DNA of 59,543 nt, counting the filler. It is 4 parts of 4 records of this genome, joined end to end, with 100 filler letters (N's around TTAATTAATTAA, not from the genome) between each part and the next. Parts side by side here need not be neighbours in the genome. Positions count along the whole stretch, not along the records: positions 27,211 to 51,897 come from SRR31156797_6616; 3 more parts are not named here. One strand, written 5' to 3'. This document shows, one piece after another, positions 27,111 to 46,487 of this stretch. Every line of letters starts with the position of its first letter. Positions within the stretch are counted from its first letter, which is position 1. The translations under genes and the position numbers were made by a program. The notes beneath the pieces are model-generated. The model searched no databases, was not told the origin of the DNA, and worked only from the letters and a program-made list of their open reading frames with translations.

Positions 27111-27210
27111 NNNNNNNNNNNNNNNNNNNNNNNNNNNNNNNNNNNNNNNNNNNNTTAATTAATTAANNNNNNNNNNNNNNNNNNNNNNNNNNNNNNNNNN
27201 NNNNNNNNNN
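27111..27210. other. Artificial contig linker
   Basis: N44-TTAATTAATTAA-N44. Confidence 0.98.
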
Positions 27211-30200: not shown

Positions 30201-30366
30201 TAAATTTACCATTAAAAGGTATTCGACGCCCCTCATCGAAAGCGTCAGAGTTTATGTTTAGTTTTACGCTAACCCGATCGGCTGAACCGGCACTGCCGCC
30301 GCCTCCACCGCAGGAAACGAGTATGAAAGATAAAATAATTAGTATAATAAGTGTAATTTTGCGCAT
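27211..30366 (-). CDS. Large surface lipoprotein with three Ig-like repeats and RCC1-like repeats (3' truncated)
   Basis: Lipobox LVSC then GGGGGS; three repeats of the type DLxLP..GSAISWSSSN..G.V..P; GELYSWGVNNYGQL and ALKSDGTIWGWG (RCC1/BLIP-II); GGGGAG RBS. Confidence 0.75.
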
Positions 30367-30485
30367 AATTCTCCCCAGAATCATATTTCAGAAATGATTA
30401 TATCACGAATTAATAATATTTCGTAATTGATTGTAGGGATTATTCACTAATTTCTACATAGGTTATAAGCTCTTCTTAAGAAGAA

Positions 30486-31805: not shown

Positions 31806-32384
31806 ATGACAAAAGCCCAGTTCGATAGAGACGAAATCATTGATAAAGCAGTGCAGCTTTTCTGGAGAAAAGGATTCAGCGCTTCGTCTATGCAGGATGT
31901 GGTGAAAACTACTGGTCTGAAACCCGGCTCCATATATCTCGCCTTCGGCAATAAAGAGGGGCTTTTTCGTGAGGCTCTTGAAAGATATGCAAAAATTGGT
32001 GCGGACAAAATCCGCAAAACAATAGAAGAAGCTCCGAGCATCGGCTTAGGCATCTGCCAGCATCTTGAAAATTTTGTTTTAGACTCAACAGAAGAGGATT
32101 TCTGTAGCTGCTTTCTGGTGAAAACGAGGCTGGAGCTAGCCAGAGATGGGAACGAGCTACACAGATATGCATCCGCTATGCTCGACAGTGTGGAGCTGAT
32201 CTTTAAAGAATATCTTATGCAGGAGTACGACGAGGATACCAGCAGAAAGAGAGCAGCAAGCATTATGATGCATATATTCGGGCTGAGGGTATACGGTTAT
32301 CAGGCGGATTCCGCTGAGAAAATGCGGGAGGGGCTCAGGCAGGGACTTTCCTGGCTACCATGGGATACTTTCGATAAGGCGTAG
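31806..32384 (+). CDS. TetR/AcrR family transcriptional regulator
   Basis: FDRDEIIDKAVQLFWRKGF..GLKPGSIYLAFGNKEGLF HTH; AAGGAG RBS before ATG 31806. Confidence 0.92.
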   Translation: MTKAQFDRDEIIDKAVQLFWRKGFSASSMQDVVKTTGLKPGSIYLAFGNKEGLFREALERYAKIGADKIRKTIEEAPSIGLGICQHLENFVLDSTEEDFCSCFLVKTRLELARDGNELHRYASAMLDSVELIFKEYLMQEYDEDTSRKRAASIMMHIFGLRVYGYQADSAEKMREGLRQGLSWLPWDTFDKA

Positions 32385-32413
32385 CACTTCTTTTGTATCC
32401 TACTATAATGCTT

Positions 32414-33166
32414 TTACTCGCTGTATCTGCTCAGCATAAATGAACCAGCTAAAAATGACACACCCGTTAATCCACATAAAATAGCGAGAGAGACCGCAAC
32501 ATCGCCGCTTAAAGATTCTGCCCTCATTACAATATTCGTATGGCTCAGCGGAAAGAGATACACAGCCTTTCTTAGAAATTCCGGAAGATAATCTATAGGG
32601 TAAAATGTCCCTGAAAAGAACGACATAGGCATAATCACAAAATTTGTTATGACTGCATTTGACTCGATATCCTTTATCACTATCCCCGCCACAACAGCCA
32701 CAGAAGAGAAGAATGCAACATTCAGCACCAAAGCGGTGAGCGACAGCATACCGAATGGAAAAACTTTGAAAACCGCCACACCAGCAGCAGCTATAAAGAA
32801 CGAAGCGATAAAGCCACGCACAACCCCGGACGCTATCAGACCTGTCATCACAGAGAATGGCGAAACAGGTGCTGTCATCAATGTTTGAAAACTGCCTGAA
32901 TAAAGCCTGCCCAGACTGACTGAGGATGCTATTAGGTTATAAGAATTTGTCATAGAGCTCATGCAGACTATCCCCTGTATGAGAAAAACACCGTAGCCCG
33001 CACCGCCAATATTGATCCTTGAACCGAGCCCAAGACCGAAAGCTAGCAGATATATAACAGGTGACGAAATACTGTAAAAGACATAGCCAAACCGGAAAAT
33101 CTTACTTTTCAGCAACATCATCTCACGGAAAAACACGGCATATGAACCTGATATATAATCTGTCAT
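32414..33166 (-). CDS. ABC-2 type exporter permease (NodJ/YadH-like)
   Basis: Six TM pattern, PVIYLLAFGLGLG, PMSFFSGTFYPI; start overlaps the ATPase stop. Confidence 0.88.
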   Translation of the reverse strand: MTDYISGSYAVFFREMMLLKSKIFRFGYVFYSISSPVIYLLAFGLGLGSRINIGGAGYGVFLIQGIVCMSSMTNSYNLIASSVSLGRLYSGSFQTLMTAPVSPFSVMTGLIASGVVRGFIASFFIAAAGVAVFKVFPFGMLSLTALVLNVAFFSSVAVVAGIVIKDIESNAVITNFVIMPMSFFSGTFYPIDYLPEFLRKAVYLFPLSHTNIVMRAESLSGDVAVSLAILCGLTGVSFLAGSFMLSRYSE

Positions 33167-33996
33167 CCCGCCTCTCCGCACTTAATAACAACATCCTCAA
33201 GCTTACTCCGGCGAACCTTAAATGACGTCAGATTTTCTCTGGCAGTATATTCGTGAAGCTCTCTCTCTGTTGGAAAAAGTCTGGTCGTCACTCTGCTGTC
33301 ATCGTAGGTATCAAGAGCGAAAGCACCAGCACTCTCAACAAGGTCTTCCGGAGTACCTTTGCTGACGATTTTCCCTCTGTTCATTATAGCTATTGTATCG
33401 CAGAGACTTTCTGCTTCCTCAGTATAGTGAGTGGTCATGAGCAGTGACTTGCCAGAATTTCTGATAGATTTTATGATCTGCCATATCTCCCTTCGGACTG
33501 AGGGGTCAAGCCCCACAGTAGGCTCATCCATAAATATAAGCTCAGCATCAGCTAACATCGCTCTCGCTATCATCACACGTCTCTTCTGCCCACCGGAGAG
33601 AGTCTGCACTTTTTCCTCAGCCTTCTCAGCGAGATTATACCCGTAGATAATATCTTTGATTCTTTCACGGGGGTTTTTCAGCTTCCTCAATTTTGCATAT
33701 ATCAGAAGGTTATCGTAAACAGATATCTCCCCATCAAGATTAATATCCTGCGGAACAGTAGACATATAACCTTTTGCAATCTTCCTGTTATTAAATATAT
33801 CCGTGTCCATGATGCTCGCATCGCCGCTGTCCGGTCTGGTCAGTGTCGTCAGCATCTTTATCGTAGTGGTTTTACCCGCACCATTTTCACCAAGCAGACC
33901 GAATATCTCTCCCTGCTTAATGTCAAAACTAACATCCTCAACCACACTCTTCCCCTTATAGCTTTTACAGATGGAATTCACTCTCAAAAGACTCAT
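33163..33996 (-). CDS. ABC-2 type exporter ATP-binding protein
   Basis: GENGAGKTT, LSGGQKRR, MDEPTVGLDP, TTHY. Confidence 0.92.
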   Translation of the reverse strand: MSLLRVNSICKSYKGKSVVEDVSFDIKQGEIFGLLGENGAGKTTTIKMLTTLTRPDSGDASIMDTDIFNNRKIAKGYMSTVPQDINLDGEISVYDNLLIYAKLRKLKNPRERIKDIIYGYNLAEKAEEKVQTLSGGQKRRVMIARAMLADAELIFMDEPTVGLDPSVRREIWQIIKSIRNSGKSLLMTTHYTEEAESLCDTIAIMNRGKIVSKGTPEDLVESAGAFALDTYDDSRVTTRLFPTERELHEYTARENLTSFKVRRSKLEDVVIKCGEAG

Positions 33997-34769
33997 GCAA
34001 CCCCCACAGGGACTGCAATAATATTATTTTCCACAGAGACAACCTTCGATCTGACTTTGAAGATTTCGCTGATATTTCCCTCTGACAAAATCTCAGCGGG
34101 GCTTCCGTCACAGCAGATTTCACCATCTTTAAAGGCTACTATCCTGTCGCTGAATCTCGCCGCAAGATTCAGATCGTGCAGAACCATAATAACTGTCAGA
34201 CCGCACTCCTCATTCAGCTTCATCAGAAGCTCCAGAACCTCAAACTGGTGGTGGATATCAAGGTAAGTAGTCGGCTCATCAAGCAGAAGTATCTCAGGCT
34301 TCTGAGCGAGCGACATAGCTATCCAAGCCCTCTGTCTCTCACCGCCAGACAATTGTCCCAACCTGCTAAACCTTTTATCTTTCAGCCCTGTAGCCTCTAT
34401 TGCCCAGTCGATAGTATCTCTGTCTGAGCTGTCCATCCTGCTGAGCATCTTCTTATGTGGGTTTCTGCCGTAAGCGACCAGACAGTGTACCGGAACATCA
34501 GCCGGAGCGGATGGAGCCTGTGGCAATATGCCAACCATTCTGGCTATCTCACAGTCCGAAAGCTCTGATGAAATTTGCCCGTCTATAAATACATTGCCGG
34601 AAAAAGGTTTGATAATACGCCCCATAGCTTTAAGCATCGTCGATTTGCCCGACCCGTTCGGACCGATGATAGAGGTGATTTTCGATTTTTCAAAACCGAC
34701 CGAAACATCTTTTAACACTTTCTTTTTACCGTAGCCCGCAAATAGCTTTTCGCATGTAAAATAATTCAT
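33993..34769 (-). CDS. Iron-chelate/haem ABC importer ATP-binding protein (FecE/HmuV-like)
   Basis: GPNGSGKST, LSGGERQRAWIA, LDEPTTYLD, HDLNLA. Confidence 0.92.
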   Translation of the reverse strand: MNYFTCEKLFAGYGKKKVLKDVSVGFEKSKITSIIGPNGSGKSTMLKAMGRIIKPFSGNVFIDGQISSELSDCEIARMVGILPQAPSAPADVPVHCLVAYGRNPHKKMLSRMDSSDRDTIDWAIEATGLKDKRFSRLGQLSGGERQRAWIAMSLAQKPEILLLDEPTTYLDIHHQFEVLELLMKLNEECGLTVIMVLHDLNLAARFSDRIVAFKDGEICCDGSPAEILSEGNISEIFKVRSKVVSVENNIIAVPVGVA

Positions 34770-35764
34770 CTGTTTACACCTCTTTTTAAAAGCGTAAGAA
34801 AAAACGGAGCACCGACAAATGCCATTATAACTCCCACAGGAAGCTCGTAGGGAGTAAAAATGAGTCTTGCAGCAGTATCAGCACATATTACTGTCAATGC
34901 TCCGAAAACTGCGCTGAAAGGTATAAGGAATTTATTATCAGAACCTATCAGCAGTCTTGTTATATGAGGGATTATCAAACCTACAAATCCGAGCATCCCA
35001 ACAACGCTCACAGCAGATGCAGCGAGAAGTGCGGCAAGGATTGTCAGGATAAATTTAGTCTTTTCCACATTTACACCGAGACCTCGCGCAACATCATCTC
35101 CAAGCGCAAGAATATTTAAATATCTTGAGCTGATAATTGCTCCGGTAAGTCCCACAACAGAGTAAGGAAGAATCATATTCAGATGTGTCCAGCTTCTGCC
35201 GCTCAGAGCTCCAGCCATCCAGTTTACAGTACCCTGAACCCTGTCACTGTAAAGCACTGAAAGACTTGTCATAAATGCCCCGAGGAAGGCAGACAATGCA
35301 ACACCGGCAAGAATGAGCCTTAGCGGGTGTGCACCGCCGTCGTAGGCGAGCACATAAATCAGAAGAGCAGTAGCTATAGCCCCTAAGAAGGCGGCAGGGG
35401 GCACAAGGTGAGTTAATGCTGGAAACAAAATCATAATCACCATTGCGGCCAGCCCTGCACCAGCAGAGATTCCTATGATACCCGGGTCTGCAAGAGGGTT
35501 TTTCAGAATGGACTGGAGGATAGCACCAGAGAGTGCCAGATTAATCCCAACCAATCCGCCTACAAGGATTCTCGGCAGACGTATATTCATCACTACATGA
35601 TATAGCCCGCCTGTCTCCTCCCCTGCAAAAACCCGGTAAAATTCATCCATGCTGATATTAACAGAGCCGTTAAGCACACTGTAAGTAAAACCTGCCGCCA
35701 AAAGTGTGAGTCCAGACAGAGCAGCTAAAAGAATCTTCTTGTCATCTGATTTCATAAGGTTCAT
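34766..35764 (-). CDS. FecCD/HmuU family ABC importer permease
   Basis: IRLPRI, NPLADPGIIGISAGA, FVGLIIPHI, ELPVG. Confidence 0.92.
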   Translation of the reverse strand: MNLMKSDDKKILLAALSGLTLLAAGFTYSVLNGSVNISMDEFYRVFAGEETGGLYHVVMNIRLPRILVGGLVGINLALSGAILQSILKNPLADPGIIGISAGAGLAAMVIMILFPALTHLVPPAAFLGAIATALLIYVLAYDGGAHPLRLILAGVALSAFLGAFMTSLSVLYSDRVQGTVNWMAGALSGRSWTHLNMILPYSVVGLTGAIISSRYLNILALGDDVARGLGVNVEKTKFILTILAALLAASAVSVVGMLGFVGLIIPHITRLLIGSDNKFLIPFSAVFGALTVICADTAARLIFTPYELPVGVIMAFVGAPFFLTLLKRGVNR

Positions 35765-36675
35765 TAATTAGTTTCCGGATAAATTATCTTATGGAGCTCA
35801 GTAACTGCATCTGCCAGCCTCACGGTGGGGTTGATACCATATGTAGCAAAAGGGAGCATAATGGTGCGTCCCTCTTTTACAGCCCGGAGCGACTTCCACG
35901 CCGGGTGTTTTAGTAAACTTTTATCAGCCGCCGGAGAGACTATATCCCTATGGGTAATCACAAAAATATAATCAGGATCCTTCATGGTCACATACTCAAG
36001 GCTTACAGGGATAAAACCTCTGGAAATTCCTCTTTTTTTCCCCTTTTTACCTGTGGCTATATTGTCTCCGCCAGCCAAATAAGTTATCTGACCGATAACA
36101 CTTTCAGGCAGAGCCATGCTGAAGCTCTCCGGCGAACCGTAGACCACCAGCACTTTTTTTCTGGACGTCTTTAAGACCTTGTCCTCTATCTTTTCAAGCT
36201 GTTCTATAATCTCTTTCCAAACCTTATCTGCTCTATCCTCATGACCGGTTATCCTGCCGAAAACATTAAGAATCTCCGCTGTCTCCGCCATATTTCCGGC
36301 GCTGAACATAGCGGTCTTTATACCGGAGGATTCCAGCGAATCCCTCAGAGCAATATGGAAAGGGAAATTCATCCCTATAACCAGATCAGGTCCCATGGCA
36401 ACAATCCTCTCTACATCCGGATTACTCACCTTGCCGACACTTTGGATATCGCCAAGCTTCTCCATTATGTACTTAGGCATGGTCGAGCTTTCAGCATAGG
36501 CGTAAGGTTGCCCGCCTACAGCGTAAAACAGCTCCAGATTAGAGCTATTCAGCACTATCACCTTCTCAGGAACCTTCTCAAGAGTTACAGCTTTATTTGT
36601 GTGATCGATAAAATTTATCTGAGCAAAAGCGCTGAATGGTATAAGCATAAGCGCTGTCATAATTAGCTTTTTCAT
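35764..36675 (-). CDS. Periplasmic iron-chelate/haem binding protein
   Basis: Signal peptide AFA-Q; PEKVIVL, PDVERIVAMGPDLVI, WKSLRAVKEGR. Confidence 0.88.
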   Translation of the reverse strand: MKKLIMTALMLIPFSAFAQINFIDHTNKAVTLEKVPEKVIVLNSSNLELFYAVGGQPYAYAESSTMPKYIMEKLGDIQSVGKVSNPDVERIVAMGPDLVIGMNFPFHIALRDSLESSGIKTAMFSAGNMAETAEILNVFGRITGHEDRADKVWKEIIEQLEKIEDKVLKTSRKKVLVVYGSPESFSMALPESVIGQITYLAGGDNIATGKKGKKRGISRGFIPVSLEYVTMKDPDYIFVITHRDIVSPAADKSLLKHPAWKSLRAVKEGRTIMLPFATYGINPTVRLADAVTELHKIIYPETN

Positions 36676-37160
36676 TGCATAAACCTCTTTTTAAGGTTCA
36701 GATATTTCTCTTTCTGATCCTGTTTAATCTGTCTGTCTTCACCTCTGCCGAGATAAAATTTTATAGCTGCGTCACCGTTTTTATCGTAAATCTGTATGGA
36801 AAGTGATTCCATCCCCATAAAAGGACGATCTACGAAGAATATACTCTCGAAATTGCCGGACATAAGATGCCCGCCGACGCAGTTTCCATGTTCGTGCAGG
36901 TTATAAAAACCTTTGGCGAAACCGCCTTTAGGAACTGAGCTTTTAACTTCAAATATGACACTGCCGTTTGTCACTATTATTGTCATATCTCCCCATCCGT
37001 TCATCTCATCCATAATCTGCTCAAAATTATCCGCAGATATCTCGAAAGCCTGATCCGGTATAGCATTCAGAACAGTCTTTTCTGAAACACCTAAATCTCT
37101 CGCTGCCATAACTGTGGCGGCTTTGGTGTTTTGATTCATGTATTCTGTAACTTTATCCAT
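36672..37160 (-). CDS. hutX: Haem utilisation carrier protein HutX/ChuX
   Basis: ARDLGVSE, GFYNL, GHL, FVDRPFMG, KFYLGR; directly after hutW. Confidence 0.85.
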   Translation of the reverse strand: MDKVTEYMNQNTKAATVMAARDLGVSEKTVLNAIPDQAFEISADNFEQIMDEMNGWGDMTIIVTNGSVIFEVKSSVPKGGFAKGFYNLHEHGNCVGGHLMSGNFESIFFVDRPFMGMESLSIQIYDKNGDAAIKFYLGRGEDRQIKQDQKEKYLNLKKRFMQ

Positions 37161-37174
37161 AATAATCTCCTTAA

Positions 37175-38569
37175 TCAGTTTTGAGCTGCAATCATCGCAG
37201 ACTCAGGTAAATAATCACTGTCCTCTGCAATGGCAAGCACATCTACTAACGCCTGCGCCATATTCACATACCAGAACTGCCCCTCCGGAGTCAGCTTCAT
37301 AATATTGTAATCGAACGTAACCATACCTCTCTCTTTCCATGAGTTCAGAAGAGGCTCAAAGAGTGAATGCAGGTCTGTCCCCGCTTCTTTGTTGATAATG
37401 TCAAACCGGAGGAAACCGCTATCTATCTGGCTTGTAATGAGGTTTAACAATCTGCTGTTATGAGGTGACATGCTCATGCCCATTATCGGCTTAACACCTC
37501 CCTGCACCATTTTCAGATAAGGTTCCATTGCTACGTGTGTGAAGTATCCGTACCCCTGTGTTCTCCCTCCTGCACCCACACCGAATGCGTGCATCATATG
37601 TCCCTCTTTAGAGAGCCTGTTATAAAGGCTTCTATCTCTGGTTCCTTTTATCCAGTGAGCCACACTCGGCTGTAGATACCCTAAGTTATTCATAAGTTTG
37701 TATGATTTAATGTGATATATAGCCTGCTGTGAGGTGGTCGCAGGCGGAGGCATCTTTCCTGCTTTTATCTTTTCGTCCATCTTCCCCTTATCAAAGACAT
37801 TAAGCTGATAGAGAGCCATACCGTCCACACCAAGCCTGTCAGCGTGGAGTATATCTTCTATAAAATCATTCTCAGACTGGAAAGGGAGCCCGTACATAAG
37901 GTCTATTGAAACTGCGGCGCTGTTATAGCTTTTCAGCTCTTCGATTTTACCCGATACAGTATCTCCGTCATCCACCCTGCCTATAGACCTTCTCGCATTT
38001 GTGTCAAAGGACTGTACTCCGAGAGAAAATCTGTTGACGCCATTTTCGAGACAGGTCTCAATCTTTTCAGTATCAAACTGGTATGTCCTCGTCTCAAATG
38101 TGACTTCACAGTCGTTTGCGAGAGGTAGATTTTCCATGATCACTTGTAAAATTCTCTCTATCTGTGATCTGTTCAGAGCGCCGGGAGTTCCGCCTCCGAT
38201 ATATACAGCGTTAATCTCACCACTGGATATAAGCGGCAGCTTCCCCCCCTGTTGGATCTCTGATACCAAGGCAGAGGTAAAGTCTTCCATCATATTTTCT
38301 TTTGCAAAATTTTTAAAAAAACCGCAATATGCGCACCTTGTCTGACAGAAAGGGACATTTATATACACAAGTTTTTTACCTGAAGGATTCATCGAAGTTT
38401 CTTTCATCCATACACGCATATTGTCAGACGGTTCAACCACTTTCCCTTTACCGCCGGCGTGCACAACTCTCTTCTTGTCGTAACCTTTTGTCAGTGAATC
38501 TTCTTTTTCATTACCAAAAATGAGTTTGCGCTTCTCATCATCCAGAAGCTCATACCAATTTAAATTCAT
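37175..38569 (-). CDS. hutW: Anaerobic haem-degrading radical SAM methyltransferase HutW/ChuW
   Basis: YINVPFCQTRCAYCGF, YIGGGTP, LPLANDCEVTFE, NRFSLGVQSF, HW..RDRSLYN; followed by hutX. Confidence 0.85.
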   Translation of the reverse strand: MNLNWYELLDDEKRKLIFGNEKEDSLTKGYDKKRVVHAGGKGKVVEPSDNMRVWMKETSMNPSGKKLVYINVPFCQTRCAYCGFFKNFAKENMMEDFTSALVSEIQQGGKLPLISSGEINAVYIGGGTPGALNRSQIERILQVIMENLPLANDCEVTFETRTYQFDTEKIETCLENGVNRFSLGVQSFDTNARRSIGRVDDGDTVSGKIEELKSYNSAAVSIDLMYGLPFQSENDFIEDILHADRLGVDGMALYQLNVFDKGKMDEKIKAGKMPPPATTSQQAIYHIKSYKLMNNLGYLQPSVAHWIKGTRDRSLYNRLSKEGHMMHAFGVGAGGRTQGYGYFTHVAMEPYLKMVQGGVKPIMGMSMSPHNSRLLNLITSQIDSGFLRFDIINKEAGTDLHSLFEPLLNSWKERGMVTFDYNIMKLTPEGQFWYVNMAQALVDVLAIAEDSDYLPESAMIAAQN

Positions 38570-38745
38570 GATTTAACCTCCGCCAGGCGTCTTTCGATGA
38601 CCTCACCAATATCATCAGCAAAGACCTGTACATAGCTGCATTTAGGACACTTGACCTCAACAGCCTCAACATACCCCTTCATAAGAAGTCTTCCGCATCT
38701 GCGGCACCTTATTTCACGACAGCTGCTATTTTTACCGAAACTCAT
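38566..38745 (-). CDS. Com-family (phage Mu Com-like) zinc-finger protein, copy 2; not in ORF track
   Basis: Hand translation, 59 aa: MSFGKNSSCREIRCRRCGRLLMKGYVEAVEVKCPKCSYVQVFADDIGEVIERRLAEVKS; AGGAG RBS; stop overlaps hutW start (ATGA). Confidence 0.8.
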   Translation of the reverse strand: MSFGKNSSCREIRCRRCGRLLMKGYVEAVEVKCPKCSYVQVFADDIGEVIERRLAEVKS

Positions 38746-38755
38746 TTTATATCTC

Positions 38756-39469
38756 CTAGTCGAGCCTGTATCTCACAGGTATAACGAATCTGATCTCTTC
38801 ACCGGACTTGTTTTCAACCGGAAAAACAGACGCCACCAGCTCTTTAGCATTCTTATCAAGGAGCCTGTGTCCGCTCGATTTTTCCAGTTTAAAGTCCAGA
38901 ATCCCGCCATCCACACCTATCAGAACATTTATTTTAACAACCCCCTGCTGACCTTTCTTTCTAGCCAGATAAGGGTAACTTTTATTCAATTCAATCCGCC
39001 TCAAAACAGAATCCATATACGCTTTATAATCAAAAAGCGGCTTCGGCTCCTGTTCGGCAGGCTTATGTATCTGCACAATCTCCTGCTCAGGTTCGCTCTT
39101 TATCTCAACCACAGGCTGGACAACCACTTGCTCAGGTTCTTTCTGCACCACTTGCTTCTGCGCTGGCGCTCTCTTAACTCTCTTTATCTTCTTTTCAGGT
39201 TTTTCAATTTTCTTCTTAACTTTCGTTTTCTTTACTACTTTTTTCTGTTCCCTCTTTACCTGCTCTGGCTCAGTCTTTTTTATCAGAGGCACAGGCTTAG
39301 GCTGAGGTTTTTCAATCTTAAACGTCTTAAGGCTTATCTTCAGCCTCTTCTGCTTAGCTTCCTTCTGTATCTCATCTTTAACAGGCAGCTCCAAAGCTGA
39401 TATGGCGAAATGAAGCAGAACAGAAAGAATTAAACTGACTAAATAAGCCGATAATCTTCTATTTCTCAT
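38756..39469 (-). CDS. tonB: Energy transducer TonB
   Basis: N-terminal TM with SVLLH, Lys/Pro/Glu-rich linker, YPYLARKKGQQGVV..SSGHRLLD C-domain. Confidence 0.88.
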   Translation of the reverse strand: MRNRRLSAYLVSLILSVLLHFAISALELPVKDEIQKEAKQKRLKISLKTFKIEKPQPKPVPLIKKTEPEQVKREQKKVVKKTKVKKKIEKPEKKIKRVKRAPAQKQVVQKEPEQVVVQPVVEIKSEPEQEIVQIHKPAEQEPKPLFDYKAYMDSVLRRIELNKSYPYLARKKGQQGVVKINVLIGVDGGILDFKLEKSSGHRLLDKNAKELVASVFPVENKSGEEIRFVIPVRYRLD

Positions 39470-39860
39470 CTTCAGTAAGGAAAGAGACAGACTCCGCCCC
39501 CGCTTCTTTCGCAACCCCCATAACAGCCACTATCCTGTCAAAGCTAACACCTTTATCTGATGCTATTGAAACGTCTTTATCATTTTTGGATATAAGAGCA
39601 TTCTCTATAAGCTCTTTCAGGCGTGCCATACTGACCATATCCTCGTTATAATAAAGCTCGCCATTATCCTTAACCGATATCACAAAAACATCTGGCTTAA
39701 CCATCTCTCTAGTTGTACTCCCTGGCAGGTCTGTCGCCACAGCAGGAATCCTGAACACTGATGTCAGCAGGAAGAAGATGAGCAGAAGAAAAACCATATC
39801 GATCATAGGTGTCATGTCGGGGGATTTCGCCTTCTCAGTTATGAGGTCAAACTCTATCAT
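39459..39860 (-). CDS. exbD: ExbD/TolR
   Basis: DMTPMIDMVFLLLIFFLLT motif. Confidence 0.92.
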   Translation of the reverse strand: MIEFDLITEKAKSPDMTPMIDMVFLLLIFFLLTSVFRIPAVATDLPGSTTREMVKPDVFVISVKDNGELYYNEDMVSMARLKELIENALISKNDKDVSIASDKGVSFDRIVAVMGVAKEAGAESVSFLTEDEK

Positions 39861-40468
39861 CCGCACACTCCAAAAAGCCTGACGATCTCCTCACCTTTTA
39901 TCTTAAGGTTGATCGCCTTCTGGTTTAGTTGTTTCTCAAAAAAATGGTAAATTATTAGCGCAGGTATACCTACAAAAAGACCTGCAACAGTCGTCAGAAG
40001 TGATTCCCATATCCCGCCGGCGAGAAGTGATGCGTCAACAGCACCTTTGTTCGATGCAACAGCGTGAAAGGATGAAACCATGCCGACCACTGTCCCGCAA
40101 AGCCCAAGCATAGGCGCTATCCGCCCTATAAGCTCCATAATGTGCAGATTTCTGCCGAACTTCTGAAGCTCTTCGATACCCTTATTAGAAACTATATGCT
40201 CGAGGTCGTGCCGTGAGCATTTCATATTATCCAAAACTTCCAGAAAAACAATTTCAAGGGGTCCGTTACAGCTCTTCAGGATCGCACGGGCTTCATCAAC
40301 CTGCCCTCTCTCAACCATAGATTTCGCATCGAGATACTTCCGCATGTCGCTCCGGTTTCTAATGAAAAACCATAACCTTTCAAAAAAGATCATAAAAAGA
40401 AGTATCGAACATAACATAAGCGGATACATAAGCAATCCGCCCTTGCTCATCAGAAAAGCTACTGTCAT
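39857..40468 (-). CDS. exbB: ExbB/MotA/TolQ
   Basis: IAPMLGLCGTVVGM, GGIWESLLTTVAGL. Confidence 0.92.
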   Translation of the reverse strand: MTVAFLMSKGGLLMYPLMLCSILLFMIFFERLWFFIRNRSDMRKYLDAKSMVERGQVDEARAILKSCNGPLEIVFLEVLDNMKCSRHDLEHIVSNKGIEELQKFGRNLHIMELIGRIAPMLGLCGTVVGMVSSFHAVASNKGAVDASLLAGGIWESLLTTVAGLFVGIPALIIYHFFEKQLNQKAINLKIKGEEIVRLFGVCG

Positions 40469-40471
40469 AAC

Positions 40472-41017
40472 CTACCTCTCGCCAAGCAGAAGGCTCTCTG
40501 CAAATGCCCAGCATTCAGCTTTATTCATCAGTGTTCTGGGGTGCTTTTTTTCAGACACCTGTTTCTCATTCAGCCCTATCATTTTATAAAATTTATCAAG
40601 CCCGGCCTTATCCTCTTCGCTCATCTGCGAATAGATCATCTCGCCGTGAAGCATAGCTCCTGCGATACACCATTTGCCAAGCCTCTCAGCATATTTTTCG
40701 AGGTTCAAAAGACCACCGTAAGCTCTGCCGTTCACCATAACCGGCTCTGTCTTCATCACTACCCCAAAAAGCCCTGTCTTAACTTTTCTGAGGCTCTCGA
40801 TATTTCGGTCTATGTATTCCTCAAGCTCCGGCAGAAAACTGTGATTATATATACCTGAGCCGAGGAGTACTAAATCGTACTCCCCCGTGCTCAAGGCTGT
40901 ATCAGCTCTTTCAAGTGTTACTTCTATATCTTTTTCTGCTCGCAGCCTTTCTGCTATCCAGCCCGCTATCTCCGCTGTGGAGCCGTAGCGGCTGGCGTAA
41001 ACTATCCTTACATTCAT
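40472..41017 (-). CDS. Flavodoxin-domain protein (HemG/Flavodoxin_5-like)
   Basis: IVYASRYGSTAEIA FMN-binding loop, YDLVLLGSGIY; start set at MNVRIVY right after the receptor stop. Confidence 0.8.
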   Translation of the reverse strand: MNVRIVYASRYGSTAEIAGWIAERLRAEKDIEVTLERADTALSTGEYDLVLLGSGIYNHSFLPELEEYIDRNIESLRKVKTGLFGVVMKTEPVMVNGRAYGGLLNLEKYAERLGKWCIAGAMLHGEMIYSQMSEEDKAGLDKFYKMIGLNEKQVSEKKHPRTLMNKAECWAFAESLLLGER

Positions 41018-41018
41018 C

Positions 41019-43049
41019 TTAAAAATCCACTGTCGCCTTAAGGATGAAATGTCTGCCAGGCTCTTCAAGGGGCGAGAGTGCTACGAAATACTCTTTATTT
41101 GTTATGTTTAACGCCTCAGCAGTAATGATTACTCTCCTGCCGTCTTTCAGGTTGTAGCCGTAGTTAAGATTAAGATTATATGTTGTGTAACCATCGGTTC
41201 TATCCACTAAACCACCTGAGGCCTCATCCTCTGCATCTGAAGCATATCTCAGATAGATATCAGATGAGAAAAACGACTTTTTGAAAGATTTGTCATACTG
41301 AACACCCAGTCTGCCGAACTTCTCAGGCATACCGTTTTTAGTGGTGGAAAAGCCATCAGTTTCATATTTTCTGCGCATATATGTACCGTTTATATAAGGT
41401 CTGAAGTCAGCAATCCTATACCCTGCTGCAAGCTCTAAACCTGTCGTATTAGCTTTATCAACGTTTCTATAAAATCTTGCATCAGCCCCGTTAATCGTTG
41501 TTGCGATAGTGGTTATATAGTCCTTGGCTTTGTTATGAAAAATGGCAGCATCAACATCCAGAGCCTTATTATCAAACCTTACACCAATCTCATAGTTATC
41601 AGATGATTCAGGATCAAGATCAGGATTAGAGTAGGTAGGAATAGTACTTCCGTGGGTTGTACCCATGTAAAGCTGCTGAAGGTTTGGAGTTCTATAGCCT
41701 CTGGAATATAGAGCACGTAGCGCTGTGTTTTTAACACCGGTATAAACAAGGGAAACACTCCCCACTACACTCTTAGTATCCGAACTCCCTTTCTCGTATG
41801 AAGGGTTGTCAGTGCTTGTAAGCTCTGTGTCAGTTATCGTATATCTAAGACCGCCTGACAGAATAAAATTATCGCCAAGCATCTGCTCATCGTGAACGAA
41901 GAAAGCTTTACTGACCTGCTCCGCTTCACTATCATAATAGTCAAAAGCACTTGCACCAAAACCTTTTTTAGTATCGTCAACTTCAAGATCGTCTTTCATA
42001 TATTCAAAACCAGCAATCAGAAGGTTTGTATCGTGCAGATCAAAATCCATCTGAAGGTTGGCACCAGTGCTCATAAGGTCATTTTCAGTGGTGGAAAGAG
42101 ATTCCATAGACATAACCATAGGTCCCATCTGCTGGGTCATAAACATGTTATTAACAAACTTCTTATATGTAGACTGACGATAAGCATCGATACGGACTTT
42201 GCTCAGCTTACCAGTAAGCTCTTTCAGCTCGACATACGCTGCTGTCTTCTGACGATCCCAGTCAGGGAGATCCATCTCCATAGCAAACGATTCGCTGTCC
42301 TCATAGCCTGTTCTGACCTCATTGTCTGATCTATAGTCAGTATGCTCCACACCGAAAGAGTATTTATCGCTCTCATATCCGGTGAGCAATCTGATATTCA
42401 GGTTATCATATTCAGTGTGATCAATCTCATCACCGTCAGTATCTATCCTGTTACCATGATTAGAGCGGGTTCCCTCACCTCTGTAGTAAAAGCCTTTGTA
42501 TGAACCGTAGAGAGCAATCGAGGTGTCAAACCCTTCTGTTCCAGAGTTATAAGTCGTTGTCACCGTACCCTGAATAGGCTTATCGCCACCCTTCTTAGTG
42601 ATAACATTTATAGCACCGCCGATGGCTTCTGAGCCGTAAAGAACAGATGCAGGTCCTTTAATAACCTCGATCCTTTCAATAGAATTTGTATCTATCAGAA
42701 GAGGAGCACCATCCATAGACTTCTGCTCGGAAAGCTTAACCCCGTCTATCATAACTAAAGATCTGGAACCGCTCTCGCCACGGAGATTAAGCCTGTAGAC
42801 CCCGGCAGCACCAGTAGATGTAACCTGAACACCGGGAACATCACGCAGAATATCTGCGATATTTGATGCACCCTGCCTTGTAATCTCCTCACCTGTCATA
42901 ACAGACAGAGTCATAGGAACTTCTTTCGCCACCTTCTCAGTTCTGGTAGCCGTTACCAATACTTCATCACTTTGAAGCTGTTTATCCTGTGCAAAAGCGC
43001 TCATAGCCATAAAGCACACGGATAAAACAACAAGAATGATTCTTGTCAT
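41019..43049 (-). CDS. TonB-dependent outer-membrane receptor, probably for haem
   Basis: Signal peptide, EVLVTATR TonB box, IERIEVIKGPASVLYGSEAIGG plug, YRTP..NPDL, terminal F; AGGAG RBS; hut gene context. Confidence 0.9.
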   Translation of the reverse strand: MTRIILVVLSVCFMAMSAFAQDKQLQSDEVLVTATRTEKVAKEVPMTLSVMTGEEITRQGASNIADILRDVPGVQVTSTGAAGVYRLNLRGESGSRSLVMIDGVKLSEQKSMDGAPLLIDTNSIERIEVIKGPASVLYGSEAIGGAINVITKKGGDKPIQGTVTTTYNSGTEGFDTSIALYGSYKGFYYRGEGTRSNHGNRIDTDGDEIDHTEYDNLNIRLLTGYESDKYSFGVEHTDYRSDNEVRTGYEDSESFAMEMDLPDWDRQKTAAYVELKELTGKLSKVRIDAYRQSTYKKFVNNMFMTQQMGPMVMSMESLSTTENDLMSTGANLQMDFDLHDTNLLIAGFEYMKDDLEVDDTKKGFGASAFDYYDSEAEQVSKAFFVHDEQMLGDNFILSGGLRYTITDTELTSTDNPSYEKGSSDTKSVVGSVSLVYTGVKNTALRALYSRGYRTPNLQQLYMGTTHGSTIPTYSNPDLDPESSDNYEIGVRFDNKALDVDAAIFHNKAKDYITTIATTINGADARFYRNVDKANTTGLELAAGYRIADFRPYINGTYMRRKYETDGFSTTKNGMPEKFGRLGVQYDKSFKKSFFSSDIYLRYASDAEDEASGGLVDRTDGYTTYNLNLNYGYNLKDGRRVIITAEALNITNKEYFVALSPLEEPGRHFILKATVDF

Positions 43050-43146
43050 AGATTTCTCCTTATTAGGTTTTGTTGGAATTCGTGATTCTCTTATTGGTTT
43101 AAACGGTGCTTGAAGCACTCAGAATTATTTTGTTTCGGTTTTTTGC

Positions 43147-43290
43147 TTATCGCCGCAGCATGAGATAAAACTGCACGTATCCGCATTTAGGACATTTGAC
43201 TTCAACAGCTTTTACATAACCCTTCATGAGCAGCCTGTTACAGCGTATGCATCTGATCTCAGATTTACAGCAGTATTCCTTCAAGGTCAT
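43147..43290 (-). CDS. Com-family (phage Mu Com-like) zinc-finger protein, copy 1; not in ORF track
   Basis: Hand translation, 47 aa: MTLKEYCCKSEIRCIRCNRLLMKGYVKAVEVKCPKCGYVQFYLMLRR; first ORF after the Fur box. Confidence 0.75.
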   Translation of the reverse strand: MTLKEYCCKSEIRCIRCNRLLMKGYVKAVEVKCPKCGYVQFYLMLRR

Positions 43291-43321
43291 TTCGATCTCG
43301 CTAATGAATTTTATTAAAGTT

Positions 43322-43340
43322 GATATTGATTATCATTATC
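43322..43340 (-). promoter_or_regulatory. Fur box in the haem operon promoter
   Basis: Minus strand GATAATGATAATCAATATC, 18/19 match to GATAATGATAATCATTATC; TTGACA (-35) on minus at 43350-43355. Confidence 0.88.
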
Positions 43341-43361
43341 CCTTCATTATGTCAAGACTAA

Positions 43362-43375
43362 AATTGTATACAATT
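43362..43375. promoter_or_regulatory. Perfect palindrome, possible GntR-type operator
   Basis: AATTGTATACAATT just upstream of the -35 element. Confidence 0.35.
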
Positions 43376-43499
43376 GCTTCACACCTATTTTCTCAGCATT
43401 ATCCGCAGTTGTTTAAGTATTATATCAGAAGCAACGCCAGTCACTTGCCAACAAATCACCAGCCCGATTAACCTAAGTTTTACTTATTAACTGATACAG

Positions 43500-43519
43500 A
43501 AATCAAACACGTTTGATTT
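43500..43519. promoter_or_regulatory. Inverted repeat, possible operator
   Basis: AAATCAAAC-AC-GTTTGATTT. Confidence 0.35.
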
Positions 43520-43973
43520 TTAAAACAATTTACACTTTTTTACATCATTTTCATAAGTTTACTATTTATTCAAAATATAGCCATTATAGAACCTGTTAAA
43601 AGGCACATCTAAAAGTTGCTAATTATTAACAACTAATAAAACATACAAGAATACATATAATTGTATTTAGTTCAACCCCTACACTACCATTTTGAACAAT
43701 CGCTATAAATATAGCTATATCATTGTTATATTATGCTTTTTCGAGATATTCTTATGGAAAAGCTGTAAAACTATATTATCATTATAATTAATAACTAAAG
43801 TAAGACTTATTATGTTTTCAAATAATACGTCTTAAGTTTAACTATAAGTAATTCGGCAGACAGTTCTCTAATTGAATCTAAGTTTAACTTATGATTCATC
43901 ACTACAGACTTTCCTGCCTGATGACATATGTATAATTAATTGATTGGTTACATCACATTTATTTGGAGGTCAC

Positions 43974-46487
43974 ATGTCTAATCTGAGTCGTAGAAATTTC
44001 CTAAAATTATCGGCTTTGACTGTCGGAAGCAGTTTATGTTCCTTTAAACCAGCATCGGCAGACGTCACCAGAGTTGACTTTGGTGTTGAAAAAAAAATCC
44101 CTGTCCTTTGCAGAATGTGCGCTCAGTTTTGCCCTATGGTCGCACATGTTCGTGACGGCAGAGTTATCCGAGTAGAGTCCAACAAAAACTCTAAATATTC
44201 AGGTATCTGCGCCAGAGGAAGGGCGGCTACAGGGGCTCTCTATAACCCTGACCGCATCAGCGCTCCGCTTGTCAGAGTTGGCAAAAGGGGCGAAGGTAAA
44301 TTCCGCAGAGCAACGTGGGATGAAGCTATCTCAATCGTAGCTGAAAAGATGAAGGCTCTTAAAGATGCTGATGAACAGCACCTTCTCGCTTTCCTCCCAA
44401 GATTTAACAGCGCCGGCGGACTTGATAAGCACTTTTACAAAGTGTACGGCACGCCTAATATTGTAGGCTATGGTGATACCTGTTTCGGAAACAGCCTCAG
44501 CGTAAGCCTGGGCTCAGTTCTCGGCGGCAAGCTCTCAGGCGGAGTTCCGAGCCAGGGAACTGCTACACTAACTCCGGACTACGAACAAGCTGAGTATGGC
44601 ATCCTAATCGGACGTAACCCTGGAGGCGGTCTTGTAACCTTCCCTTGGGGCGTAATGTTCGGGCGAGGCAAAGGCAATAATCTTAAAGTAACGGTTGTAG
44701 ACCCGAGAAAACCCTCTGAGGCTGGTGAAAGCGATTCAGACTGGCTCCCTATCAGACCGGGAACAGACTCTGCTTTCCTCGCTGCAATAATCAGTGAGGT
44801 GCTTAACAAAAAATACTACGATGAGAAATACCTCAGAAAGTATACCAATATAGATATGATCGTAGATGCTGAAACAGGCTTACCTCTCGGCGAGCAGAAA
44901 GAGAAAGTTTTAGACTATCTCGTTTTTGAAGCGGGCGAGTTCAAAGCTAAATCAGAATCTGCTCACCCTGAGATACACGGTGTTTTTGAGTATGAGGGGC
45001 GAAAGGTAAAAACTGCTCTTCAGGCTATGACTGACGCATCAAAAGAGTTCACCCCTGCGTGGGCTTCGAAAGTTTGCGACATGCCAGCTGACAAAATCGA
45101 AAGCGTAGCTCAAAGACTCAATCAGGCTAAGCCTAAAGTTTTTGTCGAGAGAGGCTACAGGTCGGAAAGATACGCCAGCTCACTCAGGGCTAAGGTGAAC
45201 ATCTCCATACTCAATGTTCTTCTCGGTGCCATAGGTACTGAGGGCGGCATGATCATCCAGCGTAAAGTGGCACTAGGCAAACCTTTCAAATCACCTAAAG
45301 GCAAGATGCCTAACATTATAAAGACACTTATGAAAGAGGAAAATGACCTCAAATTCTCAAACACAGGTCACTTCCGCCGTACATATTTCAGATCTATCCT
45401 TGAGGAGAATCCATACCTCTCAAAGATGGCAATAATAGACGGTCAGAATGTTATCGGCGGTTCCGCTGCCGGCGACTATGTGGCAAAAGCTCTTGAAAAG
45501 CTCGAAACAGTTGTAGCCATAGCTCCGTTCATGAACGAGACAACTATGTATGCAGATGTTATCTTTCCGAGCACACTTTTTATGGAGAGAGACGAACCCC
45601 TCAGACCTAAGTGGAAAGCACCTTTCCCTGTGATTGGTGTTAACCGTAAAGCTGTTGAGCCGCTCTTCGGCATAATGGACACTTACAAGCTTTACTTAGA
45701 GCTTGCTAAGAGACTTTTCACAGCAGAGGAATTCGAACAGCACTTCGGCGCATTCTCCAGAAAAGGCATGAGATATATCTGGGAGAAAGAGTACGCAGGA
45801 ATAAGCAAAATATCTGATTCAGAGAAAGCTAGCATACCGCCACTCGACGTACTGCTTGAGCAGGGGCTCTGGTCAACAGATAAACCGAAGTACAAAACTA
45901 AATCAAAAGGTACGCCTACAGGCTTCATTGAGCCTTACAGCACATACCTTGCAAAAAGTTATCAGGAGCTCAAAGAGGCTGGGTTTAAAAATGCAGAACA
46001 CGCAAACCCTCTCCCTATACATAATGCTCCTTTCTGGATGGAACAGAAACCTGTGCTTGATAAAGACGAGTTTGTTCCTATCACCGGCTTTTCGCCTCTG
46101 AACTCTTTTACAGGAGCTCAGACGAAAAACAACCCTCTGATCAAAACTTTCGCCGATACCCTCGAGCTTAACTCAGTATATATCAATGCGGATAAGGGCA
46201 CGAATGCAGGGCTTAAGGACGGAGACAAAATCGAGATATTTAACATCGAAAAACCTGATCTTATCTCTGAGGCAACAGTAAGGTTATCTGAGCTTGTTCA
46301 GCCTGACACACTCTTCACATATTTCGGTATGGGTGCAGGTTATTTCAAAGGTCACGCCGCAGGTATGAAGTATGCCTATAAGGACGGATTCAACCCTAAC
46401 CACGTCTCAAACTTTAAGTTTAACCCTCTCACAGGAGGACAGCCGTCTCAGGACATGATCGTTAAAGTCAGGAGGGTAGCGAAATGA
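43974..46487 (+). CDS. Tat-exported molybdopterin oxidoreductase catalytic subunit (PsrA/PhsA-like)
   Basis: SRRNFLK Tat motif, CRMCAQFC..C FS0 cluster, YNPDRISAPL, GDTC putative Mo-ligating Cys, VVDPR, ADVIFPS..ER; GGAGG RBS. Confidence 0.85.
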   Translation: MSNLSRRNFLKLSALTVGSSLCSFKPASADVTRVDFGVEKKIPVLCRMCAQFCPMVAHVRDGRVIRVESNKNSKYSGICARGRAATGALYNPDRISAPLVRVGKRGEGKFRRATWDEAISIVAEKMKALKDADEQHLLAFLPRFNSAGGLDKHFYKVYGTPNIVGYGDTCFGNSLSVSLGSVLGGKLSGGVPSQGTATLTPDYEQAEYGILIGRNPGGGLVTFPWGVMFGRGKGNNLKVTVVDPRKPSEAGESDSDWLPIRPGTDSAFLAAIISEVLNKKYYDEKYLRKYTNIDMIVDAETGLPLGEQKEKVLDYLVFEAGEFKAKSESAHPEIHGVFEYEGRKVKTALQAMTDASKEFTPAWASKVCDMPADKIESVAQRLNQAKPKVFVERGYRSERYASSLRAKVNISILNVLLGAIGTEGGMIIQRKVALGKPFKSPKGKMPNIIKTLMKEENDLKFSNTGHFRRTYFRSILEENPYLSKMAIIDGQNVIGGSAAGDYVAKALEKLETVVAIAPFMNETTMYADVIFPSTLFMERDEPLRPKWKAPFPVIGVNRKAVEPLFGIMDTYKLYLELAKRLFTAEEFEQHFGAFSRKGMRYIWEKEYAGISKISDSEKASIPPLDVLLEQGLWSTDKPKYKTKSKGTPTGFIEPYSTYLAKSYQELKEAGFKNAEHANPLPIHNAPFWMEQKPVLDKDEFVPITGFSPLNSFTGAQTKNNPLIKTFADTLELNSVYINADKGTNAGLKDGDKIEIFNIEKPDLISEATVRLSELVQPDTLFTYFGMGAGYFKGHAAGMKYAYKDGFNPNHVSNFKFNPLTGGQPSQDMIVKVRRVAK

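Follow-up and report, generated by a model that had tools for sequence, protein, structure and literature searches.

The 59,543-nt stretch of DNA analyzed here (hereafter, the window) carries on its minus strand a haem-uptake operon behind a Fur-box-like operator, and two small genes of this operon, comB and comA, encode zinc-ribbon proteins of the Com family. A 46-nt RNA element composed of two tandem hairpins (43075–43120) lies between comB and the receptor gene that follows it. The membership of both proteins in the Com family, purifying selection on their genes, the conserved position of com, covariation within the RNA, and the co-occurrence of this RNA with com in hosts and phages are established by the comparisons described below. 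We consider it probable that a domesticated cassette, comprised of Com and its RNA target, adds post-transcriptional control of haem import beneath Fur, acting through the hairpin element.

Both small open reading frames (ORFs) are present on the minus strand at the coordinates listed in Table 1 and share a 30-residue core, as an original prediction made from the sequence alone had described, although the number of identical residues in this core is 26 rather than 25 (26 of 32 in the BLASTP alignment of ComA with ComB). The comparison with the Com profile that this prediction proposed came out in its favor: against a Pfam gathering score of 22.9 bits for PF10122 (Zn_ribbon_Com), ComA scored 26.6 bits and ComB 30.8 bits. 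Both also match PHROG 13819 ('gpCom') and PHROG 6417 ('translational regulator') at E ~5e-6; no NCBIfam model reached its cut-off with either protein. In each protein, a short tail comes after an N-terminal four-cysteine zinc ribbon with two CxxC knuckles. Aligned with the Mu Com sequence, from what we take to be the accession of the Mu genome record, ComA and ComB show 24–35% identity and the common core IRCxxCxxLLxK...E(I/V)(K/R)CP(K/R)C. In the AlphaFold2 model of ComB, four short strands form a β-ribbon (mean predicted local distance difference test score, pLDDT, 79). A fold search of BFVD with this model returned generic zinc ribbons only, with no match at E ≤ 0.001, and a sequence search of the Protein Data Bank for a Com structure yielded none at E ≤ 1.

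Selection on the two genes was assessed with eight 30-codon cores, two from the window and six from relatives. Across this set, the first, second, and third codon positions show 158, 85, and 420 differences, respectively; between comA and comB, 25 of 90 nucleotides but only 4 of 30 residues differ, with saturated synonymous divergence (dS). The duplication is therefore read as old and both copies as being under purifying selection; by this substitution pattern, comA and comB are real genes. A four-cysteine protein of this size could also be a small rubredoxin-like metal or redox protein that serves HutW or carries metal and does not bind RNA, in keeping with the location of com directly before radical S-adenosylmethionine (SAM) genes in six relatives and in the window, and with the extra cysteines near the N-terminus of several copies. 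However, the top profile matches of these proteins are Com families, com precedes the receptor gene and not hutW in six genomes, and such a role would leave unexplained why a covarying RNA accompanies com in hosts and phages alike, so that we hold a purely metal- or redox-related role to be very unlikely.

The RNA element emerged as an invariant block when spacers between com and receptor genes were aligned. The pattern of its second hairpin (H2), GAGAATC-N2-3-GAATTCC, occurs once in the window, at 43075–43090, with 0 matches in 100 shuffles, and once in each of four related loci from Seleniivibrio and other Deferribacteraceae (L001–L004), always after com. The whole genomes of these four relatives each contain a single H2 site and a single PF10122 gene, adjacent in 4 of 4 cases, and the reversed-pattern control gave 0. 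In more distant host loci, H2 is the second of two hairpins, each consisting of GAG, a 4–5-bp stem, a loop, and CC, and the element is kept after com in 12 host loci altogether. Eight of these 12 copies were aligned, those of L001–L003 and L049 being omitted as their first hairpin is different and longer. In this alignment, 95% of the 80 cells are paired, as opposed to at most 52.5% in slid controls, 4 of the 10 pairs show compensatory changes, and there are two G-U pairs; RNAalifold recovered the same two helices unprompted. The distance from the element to the next start codon ranges from ~25 nt to more than 100 nt in the host loci. A search of positions 32000–44500 against 4227 Rfam families gave no match at E ≤ 1.

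A covariance model built from the eight host copies only (R1) scored 60.6 bits at 43071–43122, and the runner-up in the window (13.7 bits) lies antisense inside another gene. Across 68 Deferribacterota genomes, R1 matched at E ≤ 0.001 seven sites in four genomes, all of which carry com, and six of the seven sites adjoin a com gene; on loci of the L001 type the score was only 11–17 bits. Among 151 sampled Desulfobacterota genomes there were six matches at E ≤ 0.001, the best two following com ORFs; the remaining four (E 2.6e-4 to 9.4e-4) lack a neighboring com gene and were put down to chance. In locus L072, R1 scored 30 bits directly after the com ORF of a Mu-like prophage, in which com and the element are followed by a Peptidase_M15_4 protein and then by Phage_Mu_Gp27, terminase, and a weak portal match.

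The seventh Deferribacterota site (L057 5926–5975; G027:C1:1006925-1006974, plus strand; 33 bits) has no com gene in its neighborhood. It is situated between a promoter-like site and the Shine–Dalgarno (SD) sequence of a gene for a 1072-aa lipoprotein, followed by an 845-aa Plug-domain receptor, with Fur-like boxes upstream and a divergent AraC regulator. As an element without com in its vicinity, it suggests that Com acts in trans, and it may be regarded as a candidate trans target of the single Com of its genome. The window also encodes a lipoprotein of similar length (1073 aa), which on comparison proved unrelated to the one behind this orphan element.

The same RNA accompanies com in viral genomes. 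These were scanned with a broader Com alignment drawn from 47 of 150 listed representatives; 80 of the 195 loci found were kept and, with one locus from an earlier scan with a narrow alignment, made a set of 81 loci (466 kb, both strands). At E ≤ 1, R1 matched 22 times; each of the 22 matches is downstream of com and on its strand. The match starts within 10 nt of the com stop codon in 15 cases, 30–37 nt away in 3, 168 nt in 3, and 498 nt in 1, that is, within 40 nt in 18 of the 22. In the alignment of the 22 viral copies, which was fitted to the model and so favors the structure, 98.1% of cells are paired (at most 53.4% when slid) and 7 of 10 pairs covary. The genes after the element in viral contigs encode a major head protein, an endolysin, an HNH endonuclease, a head-tail adaptor, and proteins of no known function.

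These data also bear on the possibility that Com-like proteins are DNA-binding transcription regulators and the element a DNA operator. One relative, P0004, was named 'Com family DNA-binding transcriptional regulator' automatically, and the element is partly palindromic. On the other hand, the G-U pairs and compensatory changes preserve RNA helices and not the identity of half-sites, the element invariably follows com on the transcribed strand, within the transcription unit, and Mu Com, the sole studied member of the family, binds RNA and activates translation (PMC6483171). A DNA operator is, in our judgment, extremely unlikely.

According to PMC6483171, a Mu-like Com recognizes a short hairpin whose loop contains an accessible GA, and the target motif is bipartite, with two GAG(N)2CC units 2–3 nt apart; the native mom site is also given there. 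The window H2, written as GAGNNUC-N2-GAANNCC with a C-NN-GA loop, bears a partial likeness to the motif published there. The best R1 match across 2.2 kb of the Mu com-mom region aligns H1 with the native hairpin just before the mom start. The window proteins resemble Mu Com as small proteins with an N-terminal CCCC zinc ribbon, the same core, and matches to PF10122 and the gpCom PHROG; in both systems, com is on the same transcript as the downstream gene, directly before it or overlapping it, and in Mu and at comB a short GAG...CC hairpin adjoins the downstream start. In contrast to Mu com, the window com genes are on a host chromosome, not in a Mu-like phage or prophage, with transcription under a Fur box; the downstream genes encode a haem receptor and HutW instead of a DNA-modification enzyme; and the putative target is a pair of hairpins, with no conserved inhibitory structure found over the start. 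The com genes of the Mu-like prophage and of uncultivated phages (IMG/VR contigs) look closer: by eye, their core is much more similar to the window proteins than Mu Com is, and they have the same tandem-hairpin RNA, beginning at the com stop codon or immediately past it. They differ in that the phage cassette precedes late genes, whereas in the window H1 begins 26 nt past the stop codon and the H2 loop is wider (C-NN-GA).

Host relatives of the window genes were collected by a word-based search, which gave 5 Com relatives, by a profile search of 1.84 billion representatives, which gave 642 at E ≤ 0.001, and from species-representative genomes, which returned 19 loci; a scan of metagenomes gave 8 loci, none of them informative. 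Of the 127 ORFs picked from the relative loci, 67 were scanned. In L001–L004, the gene order is exbB-exbD-tonB-com-receptor-flavodoxin-hutW-hutX-binding protein-permease. The cultivated species Seleniivibrio woodruffii has the arrangement with a single com. PF10122 is present in 13 of the 68 Deferribacterota genomes, with 15 genes in total, of which 14 are in TonB, haem, or HutW loci; the original prediction had proposed a survey of the linkage of non-prophage com genes to iron uptake. Six of the 15 precede a receptor gene; four follow an ABC-2 pair at the end of a haem operon and precede a gene for a 450-aa radical SAM protein; two precede HutW (TIGR04107, 566 and 559 bits), with the receptor next; one precedes a DUF3450-MotA/ExbB-ExbB-ExbD array; one follows exbBD-tonB-ABC2; and one is near nrdDG and a P-type ATPase, without an evident iron link. 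These counts are not independent events because the genomes are related. Outside this phylum, the com gene of Desulfobotulus precedes a receptor and a PepSY_TM protein.

Fur-like boxes precede exbB and/or tonB in L001–L004 and L047; in L049, the box immediately precedes com. In the G006 and G007 loci and in Desulfobotulus, no site with up to four mismatches was found.

The occurrence of the same cassette in prophages and viral contigs would fit com genes that are remnants of a decayed Mu-like prophage, without a role in the host operon. However, a scan of the 27 larger ORFs of the window gave no above-cut-off match to any phage family, in agreement with the earlier statement that no phage genes are nearby. 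Furthermore, com holds an orthologous position inside haem operons in at least six genomes, with the receptors after com in relatives just 54–66% identical to that of the window; purifying selection is strong, with dS saturated; and the upstream Fur boxes have been kept. We give next to no weight to such a derivation.

Several other loci were examined as possible com loci or bear related proteins. In L040 (6955–7254, minus strand; genome G006), a 99-aa ORF of no assigned family comes after the first com gene and its element, with nrdD/nrdG ~1 kb further on; the com gene of G005 is likewise near nrdDG. The Com-like ORFs in L008, L011, L014, L015, L016, and L018 were rejected as family members, as only the VEVKCPKC knuckle matches; these belong to a different double zinc ribbon (at ~5.6–6.2 kb in each locus) with two KCPxCG knuckles, of which the first alone is Com-like, and an LLDEGKSY-like end. 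This protein is encoded directly before an SBP_bac_3-permease-ATPase amino-acid ATP-binding cassette (ABC) operon in Deferribacterales, Calditerrivibrio, Deferribacter, and Hippea. L013, L017, and L019 were dismissed as chance matches or other zinc ribbons. A further Com-like subfamily (FRCKFCHRLLAKV...VEVKCPKCK) with a C-terminal extension of ~30 residues was found in Margulisiibacteriota and unclassified metagenome-assembled genomes (L005, L006, L007, L009, and L010), with no R1 element beside it in these loci; in L005 (6010–6460), it is tandemly duplicated after an Opp-type ABC operon, beside enolase.

A number of results weigh against control of haem import through Com and the element. R1 found no match in the other 59 of the 81 viral loci, in the four loci with com before the 450-aa radical SAM gene, in L039, or near comA in the scan of the window, and a tblastn search of 50,697 phage records with ComB gave nothing at E ≤ 0.01. 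On the Mu com-mom region, R1 scored only 8.9 bits (E 0.24), and H2 differs at 2 of the 10 specified positions from the published SELEX motif (PMC6483171), a likeness spotted post hoc. HutW scores above its cut-off in 22 of the 68 Deferribacterota genomes, 11 with and 11 without com, and the haem operon therefore works without com; of the 46 genomes without HutW, 2 carry com. The suggestion of one com copy per sub-module, which formed part of the original prediction, is not supported by these data: ComA has no element, relatives manage with one com, and half of the HutW-bearing genomes have none. RNAalifold on seven loci gave no conserved pairs hiding the receptor SD or start, in an alignment that places H2 poorly, and neither the comB-receptor nor the comA-hutW region folds, as a single sequence, more stably than shuffles (z −0.96 and −0.47). 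Finally, the comB-receptor linker is A-rich and looks accessible, with a strong AGGAG.

Because no conserved structure hides the SD and the folds are no stabler than shuffles, the direction of control is taken from Mu alone. The same protein–RNA pair might instead repress translation of the receptor, as negative feedback, or alter the stability or processing of the mRNA between comB and the receptor gene. The lack of a conserved inhibitory structure available for opening, the accessible linker with its strong SD, and the variable distance from element to start in host loci all speak for such an outcome. Against it stand the activating function of Mu Com, the only studied member of the family (PMC6483171), and a CCCC/GGGG hairpin that covers the downstream SD, as in Mu, in com-radical SAM loci (four close sequences). 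This hairpin occurs instead of R1 in L045 (8175–8267), L046 (8011–8103), L048 (8406–8498), and L044 (6228–6312), where com precedes the 450-aa radical SAM gene; its 3' arm is part of the downstream SD, resembling the inhibitory structure of the Mu type. We assign repression or an effect on the mRNA itself a rather low, though not negligible, probability. If Com does control the operon through the element, activation would, in our assessment, be about twice as likely as another outcome.

The second gene, comA, heads the hutW-hutX-ABC block and overlaps the hutW start, as originally predicted. It starts 10 nt past the tonB stop codon, which its AGGAG overlaps, and its own TGA overlaps the hutW ATG as ATGA (38566–38569). 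A 58-aa protein from another assembly (P0003) is 79% identical to ComA, tail included. In relatives, the flavodoxin gene overlaps hutW through ATGA, and in the window comA takes that place. By eye, the comA tail (38566–38625) and the ATGA overlap resemble the 3' ends of flavodoxin genes before hutW in L001–L004, L047, and L049. From this likeness by eye only, we conjecture that comA arose by duplication and then deletion, which would have joined a com core to the 3' end of a flavodoxin gene. An H2-like core, AATC-N2-3-GAATT, at the comA-hutW junction (38563–38573) would place the hutW AUG in a hairpin loop (C-AU-GA) over a stem composed entirely of A-U pairs. The window contains this core at two sites, each of them behind a com gene, with 2.48 occurrences expected by chance, and it was not found at hutW of relatives. 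It was set aside as a weak lead because of that chance expectation, the post hoc choice of pattern, the A-U stem, a minimum-free-energy fold that leaves the hairpin open, and the absence of the motif from relatives.

The genes surrounding the two com copies form an operon (Table 1) in the minus-strand order Fur box, comB, haem receptor, flavodoxin, exbB, exbD, tonB, comA, hutW, hutX, ABC importer, and ABC-2 pair. With HutW, HutX, the receptor, ExbBD-TonB, and the ABC importer present, it fits Fur-regulated TonB-dependent haem uptake with anaerobic haem degradation of the HutW/ChuW type. The operator matches 18 of 19 positions of what we take to be the E. coli Fur-box consensus, and it is the sole site with up to four mismatches across the 59.5-kb window. 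As predicted, comB is the first ORF after this site, a candidate Fur box by consensus match, and is followed by the receptor-exbBD-tonB genes. Between its end and the receptor ATG are 97 nt that contain no terminator-like site. The receptor scored 266.8 bits against the TonB-hemin subfamily, under the cut-off of 316.85, and HutX scored 164.7 bits against TIGR04108 (cut-off 110). A flavodoxin-superfamily protein of a Fusobacterium haem operon has been reported to traffic haem and reduce anaerobilin (PMC10404700).

Table 1. Features of the haem operon and its promoter, in order of transcription
Feature	Position	Strand	Description	Evidence
-35-like hexamer TTGACA of operon promoter	43350-43355	-	-10 region 17 nt downstream, inside Fur box	Read directly
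Fur-box-like operator	43322-43340	-	Overlaps -10 region	1 mismatch to 19-nt consensus
comB	43147-43290	-	47-aa Com-family zinc ribbon (CxxC-N15-CxxC), first gene of operon	PF10122, PHROG, AlphaFold2, codon-position test
RNA hairpin H1	43105-43120	-	GAG, 5-bp stem, 3-nt loop, CC; 26 nt past comB stop	
RNA hairpin H2	43075-43090	-	GAGAAUC-AC-GAAUUCC; 14 nt upstream of receptor AGGAG	
TonB-dependent (haem-type) outer-membrane receptor	41019-43049	-	ATG at 43049, SD 43056-43060	Plug + barrel
Flavodoxin_5-type protein	40472-41017	-	Start uncertain; kept beside hutW in relatives	Domain match
exbB	39857-40468	-		ExbB domain match
exbD	39459-39866	-		ExbD domain match
tonB	38756-39514	-		TonB_C domain match
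comA	38566-38745	-	59-aa Com-family zinc ribbon, 17-residue tail; stop overlaps hutW start (ATGA)	PF10122, codon-position test
hutW	37175-38569	-	Anaerobic haem-degrading radical SAM methyltransferase	TIGR04107, 483 bits (cut-off 400)
hutX, periplasmic binding protein (Peripla_BP_2), permease, ATPase, then ABC-2 ATPase/permease pair	32414-37160	-		

The gene order of the last block is also found in L045, L046, and L048. The ABC-2 ATPase and permease pair (32414–33996, minus strand) is located directly after the haem ABC importer, is kept in the same place in those three loci, and adjoins tonB in L040; a product of haem breakdown could be its export substrate. In the window, glycoside hydrolase genes flank the operon at one end and a molybdopterin oxidoreductase gene at the other. 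The 1073-aa lipoprotein ORF (27163–30384, minus strand) ends in a run of N at ~27163–27210, read as a scaffold gap. To the left of this run are GH2 and GH88 glycoside hydrolases, GDSL lipases, and DUF4450, unlike the iron and respiration genes to the right.

In the mechanism that we propose for post-transcriptional control by Com, release of Fur from the box overlapping the −10 region would allow a transcript to begin ~30 nt before comB, so that ComB would be made first. ComB would then bind the tandem GAG-stem-loop-CC hairpins, which end 14 nt upstream of the receptor SD, and binding would alter translation of the receptor cistron. By analogy with Mu Com and mom, ComB may turn translation on, so that a delay or threshold would be added below the transcriptional level. 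The protein may also act in trans, as suggested by the extra element in the leader of the lipoprotein-receptor operon of a relative. ComA would be an ancient duplicate, located after tonB, that no longer has the element and whose translation is coupled to that of hutW; most likely, it supplies more of the same RNA-binding protein. What we infer is the binding of Com to the element, the sign of its effect, and the function of ComA. The host-domesticated Com layer of the original prediction is thereby retained in the following parts: the proteins are of the Com family, they are encoded in a Fur-boxed haem operon outside any prophage, a putative target precedes the receptor, and the same RNA follows com in phages. 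The metal-sensing role that it raised as a possibility finds no support in our results.

A more speculative extension, which we regard as unlikely, holds that Com and the tandem hairpins are a portable switch, placed before many phage late genes and captured repeatedly by bacteria to gate iron or haem import. The four-cysteine site of the host proteins, with the extra N-terminal cysteines, would then report metal or haem status, and the receptor would need both Fur release and correctly metallated Com.

Two-tier iron regulation is exemplified by Fur and the small RNA RyhB. The window operon resembles that system in having a presumably Fur-repressed promoter and a possible second layer at the mRNA level, and differs from it in that the proposed second layer is a cis-encoded protein of phage origin at the operon head, with a hairpin operator. 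The coat proteins of MS2 and PP7 likewise pair a small protein with a short hairpin near a ribosome-binding site; however, they are repressors with unrelated folds, whereas the window proteins are zinc ribbons.

To our knowledge, Com has been studied almost solely as the activator of one phage gene, mom, and our full-text searches found no literature linking Com-family proteins to iron or haem operons. The comparisons made here indicate that the Com family travels with a recognizable covarying RNA across many phages; this RNA is not in Rfam, and it offers a general definition of the Com operator. For annotation, it matters that these com genes, at fewer than 60 codons, readily escape detection or are given the erroneous name of DNA-binding regulators. 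The small protein–RNA pair is readily testable and could be reused as a part for translational control. With gene and operator built into iron-repressed haem-uptake operons, the arrangement would clearly exemplify the domestication, for nutrient uptake, of a post-transcriptional regulator from phages.

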